Of a stretch of 64,000 nucleotides of DNA, positions 2,549 to 20,772 are shown in pieces. Under the pieces are notes generated by a model. It worked only from the letters and a program-made list of their open reading frames with translations, made no database searches and was not told the DNA's origin. A program made the translations under genes and the position numbers. This DNA is from a phage. Location of the stretch: the sequence record PZ168832.1. One strand, 5' to 3'. How positions within the stretch are numbered: position 1 is the stretch's first letter; every line of letters starts with the position of its first letter.

Positions 2549-3733
2549 TTAACGCGCTTTCAAATCACGGTACACGGTCAGATTCTTCTTAGCACGGGTG
2601 ATAGCGGTGTACATCATCTTGGAGTACGGAACGCCGCGCAGGATTTCTTCCAGCACGCACACGTTGTCCCACTCGCTGCCTTGCGATTTGTGGACCGTGA
2701 TTACATAGCCATAGTCCATCCCGCCAACAGCGCGTTGAGCCTCTTTGCGCACTTCCTGATCAGTAGAGAAGGAAAGAGGATTAATCTTAACCTTTATATC
2801 TTTGCCATCGGTAAGCGAGCGCAAATTGACATACATGATTTCATTGGACTCGTCTTCGTCCCTTTCAAAGTCCGGCACTGGCTCATAGCTAATAACAATC
2901 CCTTGCTCGCCATTACAGAATCCTGGGCCGTGTTGGTTGAAGGTGCAAATAACCTTCTCGCCGATTCCTGGCATTGGCGTTATACGTCCGCTCACTTGCC
3001 GTAATAATGAATTCCATTTGTCTTTGGTGCTATTATAGGAGCAAATAATTTGATCATCTTCGCCCATGAATTTCTTCAATGCAGTAACGCGCGGCGATTC
3101 TGCCAACACTTTGACGTCATCATATTCACGCGGAGGAAGGCGGTTGCCTTGGCGCACGAAGAAGGAGGCGCGGATAATGTTGGACTCTTTCCCTTGCCGC
3201 ATGATTTCTGTTAACAGTACGTCAACGGCTTCTTCGGTAAAGTAGGCGGCGGCTTTTACCGGAGGGACTTGTCCAATGTCGCCTAATGCCAGGACAGGGA
3301 TGCGGTGATCAAGAAGGCGCTCTGTGTCCCACTCGCCAACCATCGACGCTTCATCGAGTACAACAAGGTGCGGCCTTTCATCCAGCTTTGACTTTCTCGA
3401 AAAGATTGGCTCATTGTCGTCATTTACGCCGCGCACGTTATAGATGAACTGGTGAAGGGTCTTAGCGCCACGACAGCCTTTTTGCTTTAATCGGCTTGCA
3501 GCCTTTCCGGTCGGCGCAATATAGATAGCGCCGTACTCACCGACACAGCGGCGCACAATCTCGCGAGCAATAGAGGTTTTACCAGTCCCTGCATAGCCAG
3601 CGATGAAAAACACGCGCTTCGTCGTTTTACCGTCCTGCAATCGCTTGTACCATGCAACGGCTTTCTCGATGGCGTCGATTTGTTGCGCGTTAAACTGAAT
3701 CACTGGCTCATCATTAAATTCTGGAATGTTCAT
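2549..3733 (-). CDS. dda: Dda/RecD-like SF1 DNA helicase
   Basis: Walker A GYAGTGKT, DEAS-like LVVLDEASM, C-terminal VITVHKSQGSEWD motif; 394 aa. Confidence 0.8.
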   Translation of the reverse strand: MNIPEFNDEPVIQFNAQQIDAIEKAVAWYKRLQDGKTTKRVFFIAGYAGTGKTSIAREIVRRCVGEYGAIYIAPTGKAASRLKQKGCRGAKTLHQFIYNVRGVNDDNEPIFSRKSKLDERPHLVVLDEASMVGEWDTERLLDHRIPVLALGDIGQVPPVKAAAYFTEEAVDVLLTEIMRQGKESNIIRASFFVRQGNRLPPREYDDVKVLAESPRVTALKKFMGEDDQIICSYNSTKDKWNSLLRQVSGRITPMPGIGEKVICTFNQHGPGFCNGEQGIVISYEPVPDFERDEDESNEIMYVNLRSLTDGKDIKVKINPLSFSTDQEVRKEAQRAVGGMDYGYVITVHKSQGSEWDNVCVLEEILRGVPYSKMMYTAITRAKKNLTVYRDLKAR

Positions 3734-4059
3734 TATAACTCCACTACGCTTTCAAGGTCCAGATATACTGGAATAAAATGGCAATCTTCTTTTCGTTCAA
3801 ACATCTCACCATCAACATGGCTGAAGAAAACAGTTGTGTTTGGTATCTTCCATCCTTTCTCGTCGCGCACTAAGTACGCCATGGATTCAACAGGGATGTA
3901 CAGCGATACCGGATTCGCGGCAAAAATAAATTTGATTCTGTCTGGTTGACCCAGGAATCGCATGATTGTTAGGCTTGAATTCAATCTTGTATTAAGGAAG
4001 GACTCAACGATTCCGACGTGTGTTGCACGCTCGCGTTGCTTCGTCTCTTTTTCGTTCAT
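3733..4059 (-). CDS. Hypothetical protein
   Basis: 108-aa ORF with AAGGT RBS; its stop overlaps the helicase start (TAATG), suggesting translational coupling. Confidence 0.5.
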   Translation of the reverse strand: MNEKETKQRERATHVGIVESFLNTRLNSSLTIMRFLGQPDRIKFIFAANPVSLYIPVESMAYLVRDEKGWKIPNTTVFFSHVDGEMFERKEDCHFIPVYLDLESVVEL

Positions 4060-4162
4060 TTCAGGCGACCTTTGTTAGTGCGGAAATATTTTTTGATAGT
4101 ATAATTGCAGATATAGTATAAAGCAAAGTAAATCGAAATTGTGAACTAAATGGTAAATATTG

Positions 4163-4190
4163 TTGACTTTGTATCACTCAATATTATACT
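4163..4190 (+). promoter_or_regulatory. Sigma70-like promoter upstream of the primase-polymerase gene
   Basis: TTGACT (4163-4168), 16-nt spacer, TATACT (4185-4190), in the divergent intergenic region. Confidence 0.45.
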
Positions 4191-4219
4191 GCAGGTATTG
4201 ATTACCGAAGGAAAGAAAG

Positions 4220-5302
4220 ATGGCTAGTTTAAGAGAAGAAGCAAAAATAATTGAAGAGTTTTTAACAGAACTCCAAAGAGGCATCCCAGAAGATGAGCGC
4301 GTCATGACGGTGTTTGCTCCTGAAGCAACGGTACAGACCGACGAGCGCGGCAAGAAGATCAACAGCAGCTTCTGGCCTAAGCCTTGGAAGTTGGGCAAGC
4401 CGCTCATGCAGCACCAAAACGGCTATGCGTGCATCAGTTCAATGCGTAAGTCTCCCAACCCAAAGACGGGTGAGATGCGATACTGGCGTACAGAGTCGGC
4501 CTTTGGTCACGGTATGGCGATGATGGTCGACGACATCGGCCACGGTAAAGGGTCCAAAGGCGATTTAGATTTGGAATTCTTTTTCGAGCGACTGAAGCCG
4601 ACTGTCATTGTCGAGACGTCACCGAACAACCACCAGCTTTGGTACTTCTTTAAAGAGCCGATTGACCATCTTATTCAGTTCAAAGCATTCCTTGGGTCTT
4701 TCGTAAACATGGTACTCAAGAAGGGCGGCGACAATACGATTAAAGACGTGACGCGCGTGGGCCGTGTTCCTGGGTGCATCAACAACAAGCGTGTGACTCA
4801 CGACGGCCCCTATAAATATGTCGATGAGAACGGCGACCCGTTCCGCTGCCGACTTGTCCATGCAGACTACTCCTTGCGCTACACCATCGAAGACATCTGT
4901 CAGGCATTTGGCTTTCACGTCGTTATGTCGCAAAAGCGTGAGATTCAAATTGACGTCGATGAATACAAGTACGATGCTGTTTGGTATAAAATAGCCCAGC
5001 AGATTCTAGCGCGCAACAAAATGGGTGAAGGGTCTGATGGCGACGTCATCGAGAACATGTCAGGCAAGTGCCGCATAATCTGTCCTTGGGGTGAAGAACA
5101 CACCAACGGCGACCCGTATGGCGCTTATTTTCGCGGCCCCATCCCTGGTGCTGAACATGAATTCGTTTTCGGTTGCGCTCACGACTGTCACCGGAAAGGG
5201 GAAGGCAAGAAAGGTTGGACCGCTTTTGTTGAAGCAGTAGTCATGCCTTATATTGAGAATCAACTTGATATGATAAATCGTCGCGCAGGTGGCATAAAAT
5301 AG
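4220..5302 (+). CDS. Primase-polymerase (archaeo-eukaryotic primase superfamily, Prim-Pol type)
   Basis: Motifs consistent with Prim-Pol: acidic MVDDIG, SPNNHQLWYF (sG.G.H-like), DVTRVGRVPGCINNK (D...R.PG..N.K); Cys/His-rich C-terminus. Confidence 0.6.
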   Translation: MASLREEAKIIEEFLTELQRGIPEDERVMTVFAPEATVQTDERGKKINSSFWPKPWKLGKPLMQHQNGYACISSMRKSPNPKTGEMRYWRTESAFGHGMAMMVDDIGHGKGSKGDLDLEFFFERLKPTVIVETSPNNHQLWYFFKEPIDHLIQFKAFLGSFVNMVLKKGGDNTIKDVTRVGRVPGCINNKRVTHDGPYKYVDENGDPFRCRLVHADYSLRYTIEDICQAFGFHVVMSQKREIQIDVDEYKYDAVWYKIAQQILARNKMGEGSDGDVIENMSGKCRIICPWGEEHTNGDPYGAYFRGPIPGAEHEFVFGCAHDCHRKGEGKKGWTAFVEAVVMPYIENQLDMINRRAGGIK

Positions 5303-6611: not shown

Positions 6612-8282
6612 ATGTCAATTGAACATGACAATCTTCCAGAGGATACAGGTGATGAATTTGGTGCAATCTTTGACGAAATTCAAGACGCTGGTGTTTCAGA
6701 AGAAATGCAAGCAGCAGAGCAGCAAGGCACCAGAGCTAAAATAAGCCTTCAGCACAAGGCTGTTGAGAAAGATGCAGAGCGCATGGAATGCTACGGTGAA
6801 GAAGACTTGGTTGAAAGGGCACGTTTGCTCGCCTCACTTCAGGTAATCAAGTTCCCTCACTATAAACCGACGAAAGATGATTTTGTTCTTCAGGCGGACC
6901 GGACGAGTGACATGAACCGTTATGCGGTTTTCGACGCGTTGTTTGATAAGGGAAGCGGCGTTGTTCCATTCCCTCACAAAGATACTTTTCGTGGGCGCTT
7001 AGTCGACCATCGCGGCGAAACATTCACCGACCGGACGTTGGAAGTCACAGAGATAGTTGCCGCTGTCGACGCAGCAGGCCTGTCCAACCCAAACTCACGG
7101 CAGGTCGCTCAATCCTATAAGGAATGGGCCATGCGTTATCAGCGCGACGACCTGATGGACTTCTTCTACAAGAAGCTGCCTGAATGGGACGGTACTGCGC
7201 GCATTGAGAAATACCTTATCGAGCTATTCCGACCGTTCGATACAGAGTTAAACCGACAAATCGGTGTGTATTTTTGGCTATCGCTCTATAACCGCCTGAC
7301 CAACCCTGGCTGTCAAGCGCCAATATCCATTGCGCTCATCGGCGGCCAGAACGCAGGGAAGAGTTATTTTAGTAAGCTGCTTTGCGAAGCTATTATGAAC
7401 GACCGCCACGCAACACCGATTCCGTTGAACTTGGCCGCGCAAAACTTCAACCCGTTCTTGCGAGCTATTACGGGTCGCTCAATTATCGCGAACGTTGGCG
7501 AGATGACAGGCTTTAAAAAGGCCGACATCGAAAACATGAAAGCATTCCTGACTAAGACGGAAGATGACCTGGACTTCAAATTTGAAGACACGCAGGTTAA
7601 ACCACGCCAGTGGATTGCGATCATGGACGGCAACGAATACGCAGGCATGCAGCGTGACGACACGGGCAACCGTCGTGTTTACCCTATCTTTGTTGGCCAA
7701 CTTGCTGACAAGGACGGGCAACCGAACTGGTCTAAAGACTTCCAAGCTGACCTTTCCACTTTGAAAGAAGATGTTTGGCAGCTTATGGCTGAGTGCGCTG
7801 CGTGGATGGAGAAGCACGGCGAAGCAGGTTACAACGCCTTTGTTGGTGAAACGTCTCGTATGCTTACTGAGTTCAGCAAGAATGAAATGGAACGCGCTCG
7901 CGGCGTTATCCGTGATGAGATGGTCGACAACGACCTTGTTGAAGTCGTCATTACTGCGCCTTATGACCGACATCACAGCGGACGCTGGCACATCACCAGT
8001 GGTGCAATCGCTATGGGATTCAGAGCTAAGTGCGGCAAGTCGCCTTTCTCACGTACCCTTGCGCCGCACATGTCGAAACTTGGATTTGAGCCTGCAACCT
8101 ATCGCAACCAGCGTGGTTACTTTACGCCGCTGATTAAGAATGAAGCAGGGGAATACATTTCTGACTTGATGACTATCTTGGCGTATCTTATCCGCGACGA
8201 GTCTGACCCTGAAGATATTGAATTCTTGAAGAAGGTTATTGAACGCAAACGTTCTTTAGGAAGAGATAAGGATGAATTCTGA
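6612..8282 (+). CDS. Primase-associated P-loop helicase (VirE / D5-like, SF3-type)
   Basis: Walker A GGQNAGKSYFSKLL; 556 aa; sits downstream of the Prim-Pol gene, giving a split primase-helicase arrangement. Confidence 0.6.
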   Translation: MSIEHDNLPEDTGDEFGAIFDEIQDAGVSEEMQAAEQQGTRAKISLQHKAVEKDAERMECYGEEDLVERARLLASLQVIKFPHYKPTKDDFVLQADRTSDMNRYAVFDALFDKGSGVVPFPHKDTFRGRLVDHRGETFTDRTLEVTEIVAAVDAAGLSNPNSRQVAQSYKEWAMRYQRDDLMDFFYKKLPEWDGTARIEKYLIELFRPFDTELNRQIGVYFWLSLYNRLTNPGCQAPISIALIGGQNAGKSYFSKLLCEAIMNDRHATPIPLNLAAQNFNPFLRAITGRSIIANVGEMTGFKKADIENMKAFLTKTEDDLDFKFEDTQVKPRQWIAIMDGNEYAGMQRDDTGNRRVYPIFVGQLADKDGQPNWSKDFQADLSTLKEDVWQLMAECAAWMEKHGEAGYNAFVGETSRMLTEFSKNEMERARGVIRDEMVDNDLVEVVITAPYDRHHSGRWHITSGAIAMGFRAKCGKSPFSRTLAPHMSKLGFEPATYRNQRGYFTPLIKNEAGEYISDLMTILAYLIRDESDPEDIEFLKKVIERKRSLGRDKDEF

Positions 8283-15194: not shown

Positions 15195-15643
15195 TGGGTA
15201 AAAAGCTTATCGCCGCTGGTTGGGCCATCCCGAAGTGGGCTCATCGTGCGCACTACTTTGATGAAGGAGAAGTGCAAAGCCTTTGTGGTCGCGCAACTTA
15301 TTTCGGTGATGAGCGCGTCAGCGGCGATTACATCGACTCGCTTTTAGGCAAAGGTGATTGCAAGAAATGTCAGGATATATTAAGAGATATTCTTACGCAA
15401 AGAGGATTGCTTGAGCTTGATGAATCGGAGGAAGTAATTGAACTTAAGCTTGAAGCGAATTACCTTATTTATACGTTCAAGAACTATTACGCAACTAATA
15501 TGCGCTCAAAAATGAGCGAGGAAGTAATAGAAAAGGTGTTCACCTACAATCCGCTAAGGATGAATAAAACTAAATTGAAGAAGTTTAATATAATGTTAAG
15601 GAAAGAATTTAAAAGGCTTGGAGTGAAGAATTTTATATTTTAA
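15194..15643 (+). CDS. Hypothetical protein
   Basis: AGGAGG RBS then ATG at 15194; last gene before a strong terminator. Confidence 0.5.
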   Translation: MGKKLIAAGWAIPKWAHRAHYFDEGEVQSLCGRATYFGDERVSGDYIDSLLGKGDCKKCQDILRDILTQRGLLELDESEEVIELKLEANYLIYTFKNYYATNMRSKMSEEVIEKVFTYNPLRMNKTKLKKFNIMLRKEFKRLGVKNFIF

Positions 15644-15660
15644 TAGTGATTAATGTTAAG

Positions 15661-15684
15661 AGGGCCGATTGGCCCTTTTTGTTT
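15661..15684 (+). terminator. Rho-independent terminator ending the plus-strand early array
   Basis: AGGGCC-GATT-GGCCCT hairpin followed by TTTTTGTTTG. Confidence 0.6.
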
Positions 15685-15798
15685 GCCTGTGGAATGTGAG
15701 GCTTTTGTGGTTATTTACGATTCAAGGCTGTAATTTAAGAGAGCGAAAATATTATAATAATTTATCAAGATTATTGCATATTGTGGCAATCAACGTTT

Positions 15799-16499
15799 AT
15801 ACGTATTTATGACAGTTTAATCCACTAAATAATACGGATAGAACAGTGAGGAAAATACAGCGGTGTATTTTAGTGTAAATATTGAATCAAAAATAAATAA
15901 TTATGGTGCTATTATATACGCAGATTGTTTGTAATTTATAGGATATTTTATCGTGGAGTATTGGCTAACGGTGCGTTAGCCGTGGGTCTTGGTGCTTGTG
16001 GTGTTGATGCTCAGAATTTTAATAATGTTTTAGTTTTAGTAATCGTAGTCAATGATGATACGTATAAGAAAATGAGAGTCACCCCTTCACAGGATATTGT
16101 ACCGTGGCCCTGTGGTGCGCCGCGCCTGGGATTGCTGGTATACACTGGTGCTATTTTGCCGCGAAGGCAGTCATTCATACGTATCATGACGTATCATTGG
16201 GCTATTGATTTATAAGGAAAAATACGCTGATACGGATGATACGGGTGCAAACATAATATATATAGAATTCCAGAAAATTAATTAACTCCATTTTGAATTA
16301 ATTTAAATTAATTTTTTTCTACATCCTCATACTTATACTAAACTTATATTTATACGTATCATCCGTAAGATATAAGTAAAAACAAAGACTTGCGGCAATA
16401 CGGATGATACGTCATGATACGCTTCAACCAGCCATCTGCGGCTAAGTCATTGATTTGCATAACAAGCGGCGAAAGGGATGGATTTCTTTTATACGTATC
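15799..16499. repeat. Iteron cluster A: 9-10-bp CGTATCATC / GATGATACG units in both orientations around an AT-rich core
   Basis: Units at about 16057-16065, 16176-16200, 16229-16245, 16353-16369, 16398-16422, 16491-16499; AT-rich core 16261-16316; 8-bp palindrome GGCTAACG..CGTTAGCC at 15962-15980. Confidence 0.6.
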
Positions 16500-16635
16500 A
16501 AACAGTACACCACGCACCACGGTCCGCAATCCACGCAGCATTATGATTTGTGTACATTTATAGCCATAATGAACATCAATCTGCACTTGAATATAATGTC
16601 CATCCATTGTATAATTCACACTATTAATTTGCACT

Positions 16636-17124
16636 ATGGGATTTTGCACTATGAGTCAAGACTATGTAGCGATGCCTGAAGACTTTGAAGACCCGCGATT
16701 TGCAGAGCACAATCAGGCTTTATTCGATGAGTTCATTGACCTTGTTATTCAGGGCCATGACATGCGCGCAGCTTTTGCACTAGTATTTGGAATGGAAGTT
16801 GCAACGGATAACTACACTGGACAGCGAATCCTTTGCGCGCAACGCAACCCATACTACAAAATGCGCTTCAAAAAGCGTATGGAAGAGATGCCACTCAAGG
16901 ATTTGTGGAGCGTAAAAGGTGCAATTCACAATTTGGTTAAGCTTGTGCGTGATCCAGAAGTCGCGGCGTCAGCCAAGCTTAATGCTATTCGCGAACTGAA
17001 TATCATCTACGGCATCACGATGATTGATGAAAACGGCAATAGTAAAATGGGCCGTTCCATGGACGATTTCTACAAGGATTTTGGAGAGGCAGCCAAAGAA
17101 GGCGAGCAATTCTCCCGCCACTAG
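16636..17124 (+). CDS. Terminase small-subunit-like DNA-binding protein (tentative)
   Basis: N-terminal FDEFIDLVIQGHDMRAAFALVFG and QRNPYYKMR resemble the small-terminase HTH pattern (F..EY..d.n...AA..AGYS ... LL.NP.V), by recall only. Alternative starts at 16651 and 16672. Confidence 0.4.
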   Translation: MGFCTMSQDYVAMPEDFEDPRFAEHNQALFDEFIDLVIQGHDMRAAFALVFGMEVATDNYTGQRILCAQRNPYYKMRFKKRMEEMPLKDLWSVKGAIHNLVKLVRDPEVAASAKLNAIRELNIIYGITMIDENGNSKMGRSMDDFYKDFGEAAKEGEQFSRH

Positions 17125-17142
17125 CCAATTTGCACTATAAAA

Positions 17143-17178
17143 CGGCCCTAGAACACATCTTCTCCACTTCTAGGGCCG
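17143..17178 (+). other. 11-bp perfect inverted repeat (stem-loop) just after the terminase-small-like gene
   Basis: CGGCCCTAGAA, 14-nt loop, TTCTAGGGCCG; no T-tract follows. Confidence 0.3.
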
Positions 17179-17523
17179 TCGGTAATACGACGGGGAAGGT
17201 TGCAACCGTAAACGCGTTAGAAAGTGTATTATTATAAGTCATCTTTTAGTCACCTTACGTAACAATTTACGACCTTCAGCCGTCCAATCGAACGACTCCA
17301 CCAGCAGATTCGCACTATAACCTAAGATGATGCGCCCTTTCTCGTTATCGACCCGCCAACAAGTCTCGAATAGCATTCGATTTGCACTATTAACTATCGC
17401 CGCAACGCGCGTAGGGTAAACGCAATTTGCACTATGGTCATAAAGGGATAAGGTGCGACCACTTCCGATGGACAACGTAGCGATGAGAATGAGCGTATTC
17501 ATAAGCCACCAATTTGCACTATG

Positions 17524-17546
17524 AAAAGCGACCCCGAAGGGCCGCC
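17524..17546 (-). terminator. Rho-independent terminator ending the minus-strand arm of the cassette
   Basis: On minus strand GGCGGCCC-TTCG-GGGTCGC (7-bp stem with one G-U, TTCG tetraloop) followed by TTTT. Confidence 0.45.
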
Positions 17547-17552
17547 ATTCGA

Positions 17553-18179
17553 TTAGATAATCTGGAAGGTGTAGGACTTGTTGCCGAACTCGAAGTTCAA
17601 GCGCCCAGCTTCCTTAAGCTTCATGCGGAAGCGAATATGTTTGCTATCCGGTAAGCCCAGCGCGGCGAACGCTACGCGGACCGATTTGAACTCTCCTACA
17701 CCCTCGACCATAACGCCGTTACGGGTAAGACGCTTTTGCGCCACTTCCTTATTATCCCAACTTTTTGCAATGCCTTCGCTATTCGAACGGCGATGGGAAG
17801 GAGTTCCGTTTTGCACTACGCAATTTGCACTATCGTTTAAACCGCTCTTAACGAAGGCTTCATACTCTTCGTCGGTCATCGCGTCGAGTTCTTCCTGCGT
17901 CGGCTCGGCCTTTTTAACGACCGCACGCGCCTTATGCGTTTTTACATCGCTGGACACTTCCTCGCGCGGCTTCGCGTCGGGGATGGGCGATTCGTTGGAC
18001 GGCTCATCGAGCGCGTTTAAGGACTCGATTAACGCGATTACGCGAGTCTCGGCGGTCCGGCGGTCCGAAAACTTCTTAATCGGTTTTGAGCCGGAATTTG
18101 CATTATAGAATGCAACGAGGTCGGCGGTCTTAGTTGCGATAACGTCGCCGCTAGTCGAGAAGCGATTTAAGCTAACCAT
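17553..18179 (-). CDS. Hypothetical protein (208 aa), cassette gene
   Basis: Strong third-position bias with abundant CGC/TCG/GCG/TTA codons unlike the rest of the window; the antisense ORF 17578..18108 is Ser-rich low complexity. Confidence 0.55.
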   Translation of the reverse strand: MVSLNRFSTSGDVIATKTADLVAFYNANSGSKPIKKFSDRRTAETRVIALIESLNALDEPSNESPIPDAKPREEVSSDVKTHKARAVVKKAEPTQEELDAMTDEEYEAFVKSGLNDSANCVVQNGTPSHRRSNSEGIAKSWDNKEVAQKRLTRNGVMVEGVGEFKSVRVAFAALGLPDSKHIRFRMKLKEAGRLNFEFGNKSYTFQII

Positions 18180-18259
18180 AATAAACTCCTATTTGTTAGG
18201 GCGCTAGGCGCGAAAGAATTTTATTAAAGCGCCGCGCACGACGCTCTAAAAATCCTCTC

Positions 18260-18544
18260 TTACGCTTCGACGAGGGAGAAGGTTTCAAATTCTTCTTCTC
18301 CCATAACGAGTAAAATATTCCCGATTTCGACCGCTTCGAAGAAGTATCCGTTAACGTTTACTTCGAATGATTCGCGGTCCGATTCCGGTAACGCCGCGTA
18401 AAGTTTAAAAGCCTCGGCGACCGTTACCCCACCCGCTTCAATAGTTTGATCTACGTTCGCGGCGTAGACTTCGGATAAATTTTGTTTTACGCCGTAGTTC
18501 TCGACGATAGCGTTACGGATAGAAGAAACGTTAAGAATAGCCAT
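18260..18544 (-). CDS. Small acidic protein, paralogue of 19176..19466
   Basis: Aligns by eye with 19176..19466: SIRNA/SAIRAA, LSEVYAANVDQTIE vs LESVYLSNVDATIE, VNVNGYFFEAVEIG vs VTINGFVYTITEIG. Confidence 0.55.
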   Translation of the reverse strand: MAILNVSSIRNAIVENYGVKQNLSEVYAANVDQTIEAGGVTVAEAFKLYAALPESDRESFEVNVNGYFFEAVEIGNILLVMGEEEFETFSLVEA

Positions 18545-18612
18545 TTTAAACTCCTAGTTGGGATAGGCGTTAACGACCTATTCGTTAACTCATCCCGTCC
18601 CGATATGAGTAC

Positions 18613-18640
18613 ATTATAATATAGTGTAGAAAAAAGTAAA
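18613..18640 (-). promoter_or_regulatory. Cassette promoter P1 (sigma70-like)
   Basis: On minus strand TTTACT, 16-nt spacer, TATAAT, followed by a conserved TATCGGGACGGG block. Confidence 0.5.
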
Positions 18641-18684
18641 GCACTTTTTCGATAAAAATGCGATAAATTATTTTATCTTTTTTC

Positions 18685-18712
18685 TTTACTTCTTCGTACA
18701 CTCGCGTATACT
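18685..18712 (+). promoter_or_regulatory. Cassette promoter P2 (sigma70-like)
   Basis: TTTACT (18685-18690), 16-nt spacer, TATACT (18707-18712), then conserved GTTTATATCGAGACGG. Confidence 0.5.
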
Positions 18713-18767
18713 TGTTTATATCGAGACGGGCGATGGCCTTTCTTCTACTAGCATCGGGAGCTTTATT

Positions 18768-19070
18768 ATGACTACTTTGATCTCTTCCATCCTTACTTAC
18801 GACGAAGACCGCTTAACCGTTCGCTCTCTTATCGCCGCCGTTAACGCGGAACTAGAATCTAGCGCCATTAAGGTCCGCGCGGTCGCCTTCATCGGCCTTT
18901 CCTTCGACGATATGAAGTACGCCGAACGTAGCGCCATCCGCTTCACGAAGACCGACGACGAAGCCGTTACCCTTATCGAGACGGTTACGCCGCGCGACGA
19001 AGCGTTAATTATCATCGAGTATATCGATATAGAAGGTGATAAAGCTTATAAATATTTTATCGCAAAATAA
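18768..19070 (+). CDS. Small acidic protein (100 aa), cassette gene
   Basis: ORF with GGGAG RBS; same codon bias as the other cassette genes. Confidence 0.55.
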   Translation: MTTLISSILTYDEDRLTVRSLIAAVNAELESSAIKVRAVAFIGLSFDDMKYAERSAIRFTKTDDEAVTLIETVTPRDEALIIIEYIDIEGDKAYKYFIAK

Positions 19071-19081
19071 CGAAAAATTGC

Positions 19082-19110
19082 TTTACTTATTCGTACACTA
19101 AGACTATAAT
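19082..19110 (+). promoter_or_regulatory. Cassette promoter P3 (sigma70-like)
   Basis: TTTACT (19082-19087), 17-nt spacer, TATAAT (19105-19110), then conserved GTTTATATCGAGAGGG. Confidence 0.55.
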
Positions 19111-19175
19111 GTTTATATCGAGAGGGATGAGGAAGCGAATAGGTCGCTACCCTCCCGACTAACTAGGAGAATATT

Positions 19176-19466
19176 ATGATTACTTTATCCGCTATCCGCG
19201 CCGCTCGCGTCGAAACTTCCGAAAACTCTAATGTATTTGGCGAAACCTTAGAGAGCGTTTATCTCTCTAACGTAGACGCGACTATCGAGTCTATTTATGA
19301 ACCGATCAACTTCCTCGACCTTTACAAGTATCGCGACGAGGACGTAGCATCCTACCGCGTAACGATTAACGGCTTCGTCTATACGATTACCGAAATCGGC
19401 GGCGAATATCTCGCGATCCCGCAACTCGGCGGAGAAGTGACTTATTTTAAAATCGTAAGCCTTTAA
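19176..19466 (+). CDS. Small acidic protein, paralogue of 18260..18544
   Basis: See alignment under 18260..18544; TAGGAG RBS. Confidence 0.55.
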   Translation: MITLSAIRAARVETSENSNVFGETLESVYLSNVDATIESIYEPINFLDLYKYRDEDVASYRVTINGFVYTITEIGGEYLAIPQLGGEVTYFKIVSL

Positions 19467-19477
19467 GGAGAAGAAAA

Positions 19478-19687
19478 ATGACTAATATGAATAACTCTCT
19501 TAACGCGCGCGCCCATCGTACCGCCGTCATCGATATGTTCCGCGAACTTAAGGAATTATGCGATAATATGAACGCGATGTTATCCATCGGCGGCTGGGGA
19601 TACGAAGAAGAGGTTAAATACGCGGTTATGCGTCGTAAGCGCGATAACGTCCTGGGACAAATTAAACGCGCCGGATTATTCCTTTAA
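19478..19687 (+). CDS. Small hypothetical protein (69 aa), cassette gene
   Basis: GGAGAAG RBS then ATG; followed by a terminator. Confidence 0.45.
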   Translation: MTNMNNSLNARAHRTAVIDMFRELKELCDNMNAMLSIGGWGYEEEVKYAVMRRKRDNVLGQIKRAGLFL

Positions 19688-19713
19688 TTATAATTACCCA
19701 CCGTTACTAATAG

Positions 19714-19739
19714 GCCGCGCTTAGTCGCGGCTTTTCTTC
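19714..19739 (+). terminator. Rho-independent terminator ending the plus-strand arm of the cassette
   Basis: GCCGCG-CTTAGT-CGCGGC hairpin followed by TTTTCTTCG. Confidence 0.55.
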
Positions 19740-19857
19740 GTCCCTATTTCGATGCGCTTCTCCGCGAAAACTCCTTTATCCTTCCCTTCGTCGTCGCATA
19801 ATCTTCTTCGAGATGCTCCTTAGTTCGCATAACAGGTATTACGTTAAATGGAGAACA

Positions 19858-19931
19858 TCGCGTAAGTCCTTGTTTTATATAGACACCTATATCGGACCGT
19901 TAGGGCGGGTCGCGTAAGTCGTTGTTTTATA
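19858..19931 (+). repeat. Direct repeat pair TCGCGTAAGTC(C/G)TTGTTTTATA
   Basis: Copies at 19858-19879 and 19910-19931, 52 bp apart, in a non-coding stretch. Confidence 0.5.
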
Positions 19932-20056
19932 AAGGCGCAAAACTTTCCCTTCGTTCCGAACTAAAACGAGGAATATGCCGACCCTTCGTCCGAAAATAGT
20001 ACGCATGCGAAATTACATGCATCTAGAATAATCCCCACCGATATTATCCTACACGC

Positions 20057-20120
20057 AATCATTCGCTTTCGAATCATTATGCTTCATATTGTTATGCGTC
20101 AAATCATTCGCTTTCGAATT
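20057..20120 (+). repeat. Direct repeat pair of an internally palindromic unit AATCATTCGCTTTCGAAT
   Basis: Copies at 20057-20075 and 20102-20120; each contains the inverted repeat ATTCG..CGAAT. Confidence 0.5.
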
Positions 20121-20391
20121 GTAACGCTGGAAACTGTAACGGCTATTGATTATTGCGTTCGTGTGGTTTTTATGGCATGGGTCTTTTGGTGCGTTTTGGT
20201 ACTTGATGGAATTTGCGGTACACTAATCAAAATACGACACATTTGGTCCACTAACTTTTCAAAGAAAAAGTCCCAGACAGTACCGTACTATTTTGTACCC
20301 ACAGTAAATTTGCAGTACACTCCTGCGCGGCAGGCAAAATAAAGGGCCGCCACAGCGACCCACGATTCACGGTTAAATCAACAAGCACCCA

Positions 20392-20772
20392 CTATTCACT
20401 CTTATGGGCATCACCAAAGCCATCCGCAATCTGGCTGATCAGCGATTCAATGGACACAGTTTTACCAATTGATCGAGCGGTAATAGCAAGCATATTATCA
20501 ATCAAACCATGATTGGATGCATATGATCCAGGTTTTGAATCATCTTCAGAACAACCAAAAAGCTGGTCGCGCAGACTTTCAAGAGAACGCTCAATATTTT
20601 CCAACTTCTCTTCTAAATCGGATTGGCGACGTAAAACCCACGTCAAGTCACGGTTGCCAACTTCCAATCCATCAGAATAGCAAGGTGGAGCGTCAATTTT
20701 GATGCTGGAACCAAAAGCAATGCCGCTGCCTTTAGTATATGTGTGACTCATAGAATCATTTTTATTTGACAT
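20392..20772 (-). CDS. Hypothetical protein downstream of the tail fibre (possible fibre assembly factor)
   Basis: AAGGT RBS then ATG at 20772 (track start 20838 is TTG). Confidence 0.45.
   Translation of the reverse strand: MSNKNDSMSHTYTKGSGIAFGSSIKIDAPPCYSDGLEVGNRDLTWVLRRQSDLEEKLENIERSLESLRDQLFGCSEDDSKPGSYASNHGLIDNMLAITARSIGKTVSIESLISQIADGFGDAHKSE

Follow-up and report, generated by a model that had tools for sequence, protein, structure and literature searches.

What reads a short DNA word that recurs, always facing the same way, at the end of a phage genome? This question is raised by a stretch of 64,000 nucleotides from a phage (sequence record PZ168832.1; "the window" throughout), in which a 12-nucleotide motif, RATYYGCACTAY, is repeated around and beyond terS, the gene for the small terminase subunit TerS. 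A preliminary description of this DNA had noted ten same-orientation copies in 1.5 kb, and had hesitated between promoters for a T7/SP6-type RNA polymerase and a binding array for a phage regulator or for the packaging protein. The window could be assigned to Wifcevirus, a genus of E. coli myoviruses with ~68-kb genomes to which its relatives ECML-117, WFC and Mansfield also belong; these phages are distant relatives of the Pseudomonas PB1-like phages. As set out below, the array, rather than being a set of promoters, probably serves as a directional packaging signal, and we propose, more tentatively, that it is a polar recognition array for the terminase. No description of it was found in the literature on Wifcevirus, its member phages, the genome ends of PB1-like phages or the binding sites of TerS proteins, and the array appears to be undescribed so far.

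Results

A search of the window with AATTTGCACTAT, allowing up to one mismatch, returned eight matches, all on the plus strand and all within 16626-18106, compared with a mean of 0.57 and a maximum of three in shuffled sequence. With RATYYGCACTAY as the query, 10-12 plus-strand copies were found between 16613 and 18106, in keeping with the earlier count of ten, and none with zero or one mismatch was found outside this zone on either strand of the 64 kb, which bears out the bias in strand and location. The full set of 12 copies listed in Table 1 (the decayed copy at 16578 apart) is obtained at up to two mismatches. The core TTGCACTA occurs nine times in the window, on the plus strand only and at 16629-17832 only, and YYGCACTA occurs ten times in 1.3 kb, where the largest cluster in 300 shuffles averaged 1.4 and never exceeded 3; beyond the array, the remainder of the window contains one copy on the plus strand and three on the minus strand. 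Copies are spaced 12 to 608 bp apart, and spacing analysis revealed no consistent helical phasing.

Relative to the terS start, the array extends from about -40 to +1450. Copies do straddle the start codon, at which the array had been thought to begin; the most likely start of terS is the second ATG, at 16651 (as annotated in Mansfield). At its other end the array does run into the first gene of the following cassette, with copies 17808 and 17822, although both are missing in ECML-117 and RCIP0319 and the copy at 18095 is degenerate. The region between, 17125-17550, had been taken for a gene-poor gap, and was found to hold a conserved minus-strand open reading frame (ORF) of 87 amino acids with homologues in five related phages. 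The array region is 93-97% identical (97% in the case of Bas99) to ManiWeber/Bas99, WFC, WFH, ECML-117, Mansfield and other Wifcevirus genomes.

Six other phages were found to carry the motif too, with strand and zone unchanged: Kyle, PA1 and four metagenomic relatives, whose TerS proteins are respectively 41-43% (Kyle and PA1) and 45-68% identical to that of the window. With the zone defined as -150 to +1500 from the terS start, the seven phages, for which 168 kb were examined, together carry 69 sites on the plus strand and none on the minus strand inside the zone, and one on the plus and seven on the minus strand outside it. The consensus over the seven is R-A-T-Y-Y-G-C-A-C-T-A-Y, of which the flanking RAT and the final Y were not part of the search pattern. 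Of these, Pantoea phage Kyle is assigned to another genus, with a TerS that is 43% identical and flanks that align to the window over only ~120 nt, within the gene for a 208-amino-acid protein; the whole unique genome of Kyle holds 12 copies of YYGCACTA on the plus strand, all at 475-1476, and three on the minus strand, elsewhere. Pantoea phage PA1 carries 13 copies within 875 bp. A protein search yielded the four further TerS relatives, three of them from short metagenomic contigs and the fourth from a contig of 72.5 kb, with 9, 9, 6 and 10 motif copies at their TerS loci, on the plus strand only. The motif is invariant across TerS proteins that are 41-100% identical. Neither the motif array nor an analogous one was found at the equivalent loci of Pbunavirus LMA2, Xanthomonas phage XcP1, Burkholderia phage Maja, Aeromonas phage Gekk3-15 or the Serratia phages of Myosmarvirus, and a scan of IMG/VR for two close motif copies returned, among the matches listed, only Wifcevirus and unrelated coding repeats.

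The left physical end of the genome maps to ~16290 of the window, corresponding to base 1 of the Mansfield record, which opens at a boundary of the direct terminal repeat (DTR) defined by PhageTerm, and the right DTR boundary was mapped by homology to ~20187. With the ends so placed, the array fills the first half of the DTR, beginning ~325 nt from the left physical end and spanning about +324 to +1816 from it. The Mansfield DTR measures 3673 bp; a ~230-bp insertion relative to Mansfield, at 19456-19688, accounts for the ~3.9 kb of the DTR in the window. The end of the ECO71P1 record corresponds to about 16300 of the window, terminal repeats of ~3.7 kb have been reported for WFC and WFH, and terS lies at 360-831 in the WFC, SP13 and Ro157lw records. 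Kyle is deposited with an exact 3,603-bp DTR at both ends and has terS at 357, in MyoSmar the repeat measures 3,559 bp and terS lies 387 nt from the boundary, and the left end of phage MTx maps 377 nt 5' of Hera terS, so that in three genera terS starts 357-387 nt from the left end. The large terminase gene is ~9 kb from terS. Two of the contigs with the further TerS relatives are 3.7-4.0 kb long and have the appearance of assemblies of the DTR alone. The Logan contigs behind L161 (3983 nt) and P0006 (3755 nt) begin ~350-520 nt 5' of terS and have roughly the length of a single DTR; they look like terminal repeats assembled separately through doubled coverage, which would provide independent support for the repeat in uncultured relatives.

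Within minus-strand genes the motif is read in two frames. One, NAT-AGT-GCA-AAT, gives (N/H/Y/D)-S-A-N, with a first residue that varies among NAT codons; the other, xTA-GTG-CAA-AAx, gives (V/I/L)-V-Q-(N/K/D), and the third would run into a TAG stop. Copies within terS read x-A-L or (S/L)-H-Y, so that at least four frame and strand contexts carry the motif, and copies 17808 and 17822 fall in a lineage-specific linker insertion of the 208-amino-acid protein that is missing in relatives. This spread over several frames and both coding strands indicates that selection acts on the DNA and not on the protein. A coding repeat was rejected for the use of several frames and both strands without a conserved single-frame peptide, and it is the DNA motif that imposes the repeated xSAN tripeptides of the 87-amino-acid protein.

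Individual sites turn over. The window and the relative L159 share five of ~10 site positions, L160 and L162 six of ~9, and Kyle and PA1 three of ~12, and yet site number, strand and zone are kept between sister phages despite this turnover. Pairwise identity between sister phages is not elevated overall in motif columns compared with other columns, which we attribute to site turnover, not to missing selection; within Wifcevirus, where divergence is too low for a firm contrast, variable columns number 3 of 72 in the motif and 120 of 1129 elsewhere (p=0.1). From this pattern we infer that the sites act independently and redundantly, each facing one way, which would require that the reader itself be directional. 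It might be a machine that tracks or translocates along the DNA, a protein that binds one strand specifically, or one that loads something in a set direction; a fixed nucleoprotein architecture would not fit the array.

The terS gene itself encodes a true TerS homologue, as judged by its sequence and by the fold of its predicted model. A phmmer comparison matched the protein to PDB 7UXE with E=7e-34, and 7UXE was the best and only significant fold match (probability 1.0) of its AlphaFold model (predicted local distance difference test, pLDDT, 74); the Mansfield homologue carries the annotation terminase small subunit. The TerS proteins of array-bearing phages have in common a PEDF N terminus and a basic patch, [QKR]-R-NPYYK, both of which are missing in array-less relatives. 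E217 TerS is a decamer with a channel of 22-52 Å (PMC9611059). At the C terminus, a T-K-H tail is kept in three genera with exact terminal repeats, is degenerate (SRH) in the TerS of the window, and is missing in the headful-packaging Pbunavirus and in XcP1, Maja and Gekk3-15.

Table 1. Motif copies and neighbouring features of the terminal repeat, in window coordinates.
Feature	Position	Strand	Remarks
Direct terminal repeat, ~3.9 kb	16290..~20187		placed by homology to Mansfield
Two overlapping sigma-70-type promoter matches for terS	16570..16615	+	TGAACA-16-TATAAT and TTGAAT-17-TATAAT; 10/12 each, consensus match only
Decayed motif copy AATCTGCACTTG	16578..16589	+	ortholog of an intact L159 copy at -74 from the terS start
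Motif copy AATTCACACTAT	16613..16624	+	core G to A; identical in 9 Wifcevirus genomes
Motif copy AATTTGCACTAT	16626..16637	+	
Motif copy ATTTTGCACTAT	16641..16652	+	final two bases and the next G form the terS start ATG (16651)
terS, 157 amino acids	16651..17124	+	homologue of the decameric small terminase of Pseudomonas phage E217
Motif copy CTTTTGCACTAG	16772..16783	+	within terS, reads F-A-L-V; Kyle has a copy at homologous codons
Motif copy AATTTGCACTAT	17127..17138	+	3 nt past the terS stop, directly before a bidirectional terminator hairpin
ORF of 87 amino acids	17239..17502	-	signal-peptide-like N terminus; three antisense motif copies inside
Exact reverse-complement Chi, CCACCAGC	17298..17305	+	only one in the zone; would act on RecBCD entering the left end
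Motif copy GATTCGCACTAT	17307..17318	+	minus-strand reading Y-S-A-N
Motif copy GATTTGCACTAT	17379..17390	+	minus-strand reading N-S-A-N
Motif copy AATTTGCACTAT	17424..17435	+	minus-strand reading H-S-A-N
Motif copy AATTTGCACTAT	17511..17522	+	intergenic; overlaps the T-tract of a minus-strand terminator
Gene for 208-amino-acid protein, phrog_4730	17553..18179	-	beside terS in 6 of 7 PB1-like lineages compared
Motif copy GTTTTGCACTAC	17808..17819	+	minus-strand reading V-V-Q-N; missing from ECML-117 and RCIP0319
Motif copy AATTTGCACTAT	17822..17833	+	minus-strand reading D-S-A-N; missing from ECML-117 and RCIP0319
Degenerate motif copy AATTTGCATTAT	18095..18106	+	GCATTA; little conserved among Wifcevirus, doubtful array member
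Motif-like element AATTTGCGGTACACTAA	20210..20226	+	~25-40 nt outside the right DTR boundary, co-oriented with the array

Two other sets of repeats occur in or beside the same zone. In sister phages, plus-strand arrays of the reverse complement of Chi, CCACCAGC, occupy the initial ~2 kb of the terminal repeat; Chi that faces this way is active against RecBCD coming in at the left genome end. Kyle (L004) has nine of its 13 genomic Chi copies at 255-1972 and PA1 (L005) an array at 3648-5220; L160 has six copies, L162 five, and Hera (L008, 3737-4833) and MyoSmar (L024, +1105 to +1445 from the left end) four each, the last two at non-homologous positions. The window phage has a single Chi in the zone, and L159 none. 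These oriented arrays suggest that RecBCD attack on the left end, or use of it, is a selective force in this phage group. In Hera (3150-5150) the top strand flips from G/T-rich to C/A-rich exactly at the left DTR boundary, and Chi-like words point away from the cut on either side.

The other set straddles the left boundary at 16290, where the region 15796-16500 holds ~17 copies, in both orientations and at up to two mismatches, of repeats of the ATGATACGTAT / TGATACGT type, as well as perfect inverted pairs of 14-18 nt (16180-16197 with 16404-16421, and 16054-16067 with 16350-16363). This set, which is more origin-like than the array, is a candidate for a replication origin or for the context of the terminase cut site. 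A search of Rfam returned no match at E<=1 in 15500-20600.

Discussion

The case for a packaging signal begins with the layout, as the array adjoins and enters terS near a genome end, like lambda cosB and the pac sites of P22 and SPP1. In lambda cosB (R3, R2 and R1, for gpNu1) and in the pac sites that lie inside terS of P22 and SPP1/SF6, the direction in which packaging runs is set by asymmetric sites for the small terminase. As in those systems, short asymmetric sites are found here between the genome end and terS or inside terS; from the left, the window presents the end, ~325 nt, three sites 13-15 bp apart, and then the terS start codon. Unlike cosB and pac, which consist of 1-7 sites in 20-200 bp with a fixed geometry, the array has 9-13 sites over 1-1.5 kb that are irregular and turn over, are strictly co-oriented, overlap genes of both strands and lie inside a terminal repeat of 3.6-3.9 kb. 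The idea of a binding array for a packaging protein or a regulator, raised when the repeats were first noticed, is favoured by position, conservation and polarity; the part that we infer is the identity of the reader as TerS or the terminase and the packaging step served, and the regulator version ranks lower.

In the arrangement we propose, a TerS ring, alone or with the large terminase on DNA, would recognise RATYYGCACTAY in a single orientation, the array word, in the form AATTTGCACTATG, being a putative TerS/TerL target as duplex or as single strand. About ten dispersed copies at the beginning of the terminal repeat would together make up a zone for landing or reading, redundant and direction-giving, which would mark the DNA as viral and set the direction of packaging, rightward and co-directional with terS. 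This zone, an element past the right boundary, or both, might then ready the terminase for the cuts that define the ~3.9-kb repeat. Turnover of positions and the lack of consistent phasing fit independent, orientation-dependent sites read by a directional machine. Comparable words are known from other machines of this kind: Chi (GCTGGTGG), read by RecBCD, and KOPS, read by FtsK, are short, asymmetric, dispersed and strand-biased, and individually dispensable, and are read by motors that translocate or load in one direction. The array words resemble them in being short, asymmetric, dispersed and strongly strand-biased, but differ in sequence and are confined to ~1.5 kb rather than spread genome-wide. 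Short direct repeats near a DTR boundary also recall SRL and SRR of T7, which Dunn and Studier (1983) reportedly found to flank the terminal repeat and which are thought to act in concatemer processing; those are compact, tandem-like heptamers outside a 160-bp repeat, whereas the array is dispersed and inside a repeat of ~4 kb. Strict polarity together with redundancy would be explained if a ring-shaped TerS could thread DNA and slide while reading, as in HK97, whose TerS ring threads DNA through its channel and slides while monitoring the sequence (Chechik et al. 2024, PMC11331095). The channel of the E217-type TerS is wide enough for duplex DNA; HK97 differs in that it has a single specific site, located at cos, and a TerS of unrelated sequence.

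An element at the far end of the repeat may be connected with the array. In Wifcevirus and Kylevirus, a GTACACTAA-containing element is found ~30 nt past the right DTR boundary, in Mansfield at 3697, in Kyle at 3627 and, by homology, in the window; PA1 has a match at 7453, where a boundary would be expected. This element may be part of the terminase cut signal, and a TerS ring ahead of the nuclease would sit on it at the terminal cut. In Myosmarvirus a GTACACTAA-containing element (Hera 3566, MyoSmar ~3075) is found 8-25 nt inside the left boundary. A more specific version of the terminase reading, which we regard as unlikely, is that the array is a polar signal read by the packaging motor while it tracks, a viral counterpart of Chi or KOPS. 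A threaded TerS ring would meet about ten co-oriented words at the start of the repeat and be switched or slowed by them, and the terminase would then cut only at the far boundary, with the motif-like element ~30 nt past the cut. Such a mechanism, if true, would account for how the phage measures out a direct terminal repeat that is both long and exact.

Several points weigh against recognition by the terminase. No characterised pac or cosB site that we know of comes anywhere near the array in size or looseness, its zone being irregularly spaced and 1-1.5 kb long. The residues of TerS that are specific to the clade may be mere phylogeny, and the predicted helix of its helix-turn-helix shows no conservation particular to the phages with the motif, in spite of an invariant motif core. 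Myosmarvirus shares the DTR layout and a homologous TerS, and yet has no GCACTA array and no clear substitute. E217 TerS, finally, which is the only relative to have been studied, was without appreciable DNA binding in vitro (PMC9611059). As for Myosmarvirus, a repeat present in three copies, AAAAAATAAGCATGCTTTGTA, was considered as an analogue of the array, but it overlaps ribosome-binding sites and is probably not one.

Other readers of a one-way array at this end of the genome have to be weighed against the terminase. The sites could instead act on replication, as strand-specific starts for a RepB'-type primase or as polar fork barriers, on forks that leave an origin at 15796-16500 or that reach the genome end, although we think this unlikely. 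Genes for a primase of the RepB type (PF16793) and a helicase of the VapE/D5 type are present in the phage; directly to the left of the array is an AT-rich region in which TGATACGT repeats occur in both orientations; and in LMA2, Hera, Maja and Gekk3-15 terS is adjacent to a primase or primase-helicase gene and a long non-coding gap (XcP1 has several small genes between primase and terS). Co-orientation, irregular spacing and redundancy are, moreover, generally known as a pattern of Ter-type barriers and of strand-specific priming sites too. Set against this, the motif, compared by eye, matches neither DnaA boxes nor Tus Ter sites, RepB' recognises hairpin ssi sites and not a linear 12-mer, Myosmarvirus and Pbunavirus have the same primase and helicase and no array, and no candidate for a barrier protein was found among the genes restricted to motif-bearing phages. 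An iteron-type origin was rejected on the spacings of 12-608 bp, the lack of consistent phasing and the overlap with coding DNA. More probable than an operator array, but still quite unlikely in our view, is a Chi-like polar signal for an end-processing or recombination machine that enters at the left end, and that would limit degradation and promote recombination of the repeats into concatemers. The motif is interleaved, in the same orientation, with true Chi arrays on the minus strand of Kyle, PA1, L160 and L162, Myosmarvirus has four Chi sites in the same zone, and in its statistics the array matches Chi arrays, being dispersed and polar with positions that turn over. Its sequence, however, is unrelated to Chi, Chi sites range in number from 0 to 9 irrespective of the motif, and no phage helicase-nuclease specific to the motif-bearing clade was found; co-existence with real Chi arrays argues that the motif is not a replacement for Chi. 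We know of no Chi variant that matches the motif, and of no second recognition sequence for host RecBCD.

Transcriptional readings fare less well. Distinctly improbable is an operator array for a phage or host regulator of the terminal-repeat genes, one version of which would be autoregulation of terS through sites that lie at promoter positions +1 to +40. In the window and in L159 the terS promoter and leader are overlapped by three to five copies, and further copies abut terminators, but a duplex-binding regulator would need no 69:0 co-orientation of sites spread over genes of either strand, the terS promoter is free of copies in Kyle and PA1 (where the first are at +118 and +268), and no regulator gene that tracks the array was found. 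A search for a reader gene restricted to motif-bearing phages gave candidates without recognisable domains, and the sole DTR gene to track the array is that for the 87-amino-acid, small secreted-type protein. Promoters for a single-subunit RNA polymerase of the T7/SP6 type, or for another phage-specific transcription system, are hardly credible. It is generally known that T7/SP6 promoters have, at positions -7 to +1, a sequence that the CACTAT(A/G) core after an AT-rich stretch resembles, and it was this likeness that had first suggested them. But no gene for such a polymerase was found among the ORFs of the window, a point on which our survey agrees with the preliminary description (ORFs of at least 700 amino acids encode a tail fibre, a portal, a tape-measure-type transglycosylase, a tail-module protein and Pol III alpha), or in the Mansfield annotation of the missing part, where the ~4 kb of genome outside the window contain only nucleotide-metabolism genes. 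Since there is no polymerase gene and most copies are antisense to the local genes, the idea of T7/SP6 promoters was rejected. The motif is conserved over 12 nt only, compared with ~17-23 bp for T7/SP6 promoters, and the specificity region is missing; at least seven copies are antisense inside minus-strand genes, several have a terminator hairpin within 6 nt on the 3' side, Kyle-type copies end in TAC, TAA or TAG, unlike those of the window, and ordinary sigma-70-type promoters are present just 5' of terS. The perfect TATAAT boxes of these promoter matches sit just 5' of the first motif copies. The motif itself was rejected as a sigma-70 promoter, as a scan placed promoters at 16570-16615, off the motif copies, and inspection of the sequence showed no consistent -10 or -35 partner after them, and as a MotA-box promoter, for want of partner elements and for its wrong orientation. 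By eye, none of the DnaA box, Tus Ter, sigma-54, marbox and EcoKI sites fits the motif.

If the terminase is the reader, the array provides a concrete candidate target, conserved across genera, for the E217/PB1-type small terminase, for which we know of no DNA target found so far. A directional reader is suggested by its strict polarity and by the way in which site positions turn over, and the array is also relevant to how phages recognise and cut long exact terminal repeats. Should the reader be something other than the terminase, the array would still mark an undescribed polar signal at a phage genome end, and its interleaving with Chi arrays in sister phages bears on how these phages handle RecBCD. 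The array is carried by tractable E. coli phages, the BASEL isolates Bas98-101.

Other features of the terminal repeat

The 87-amino-acid protein, which has two conserved cysteines, is present in all motif-bearing phages with examined DNA downstream of terS and absent from array-less relatives. For the 208-amino-acid protein, the comparison of seven PB1-like lineages gave no match at the Burkholderia phage Maja locus. Directly after the motif copy at 17822, CGCTCTTA at 17846-17853 equals the core of lambda nut boxA, likely by chance.

Further right, a divergent promoter region (window 18545-19180, Kyle 2031-2460) contains long inverted repeats (I1, I2) and, near TTTACT-N16/17-TATAAT promoters, a AAAGTAAAGCAC element, conserved between genera, that probably serves the DTR genes as an operator. 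Repeats of (G)AATCATT with a period of ~15 nt are found 50-130 nt inside the right DTR boundary (window 20057-20137, Kyle 3419-3591, L161 3401-3588); they are conserved in kind between genera and resemble half of a Fur box (AATCATTAT).

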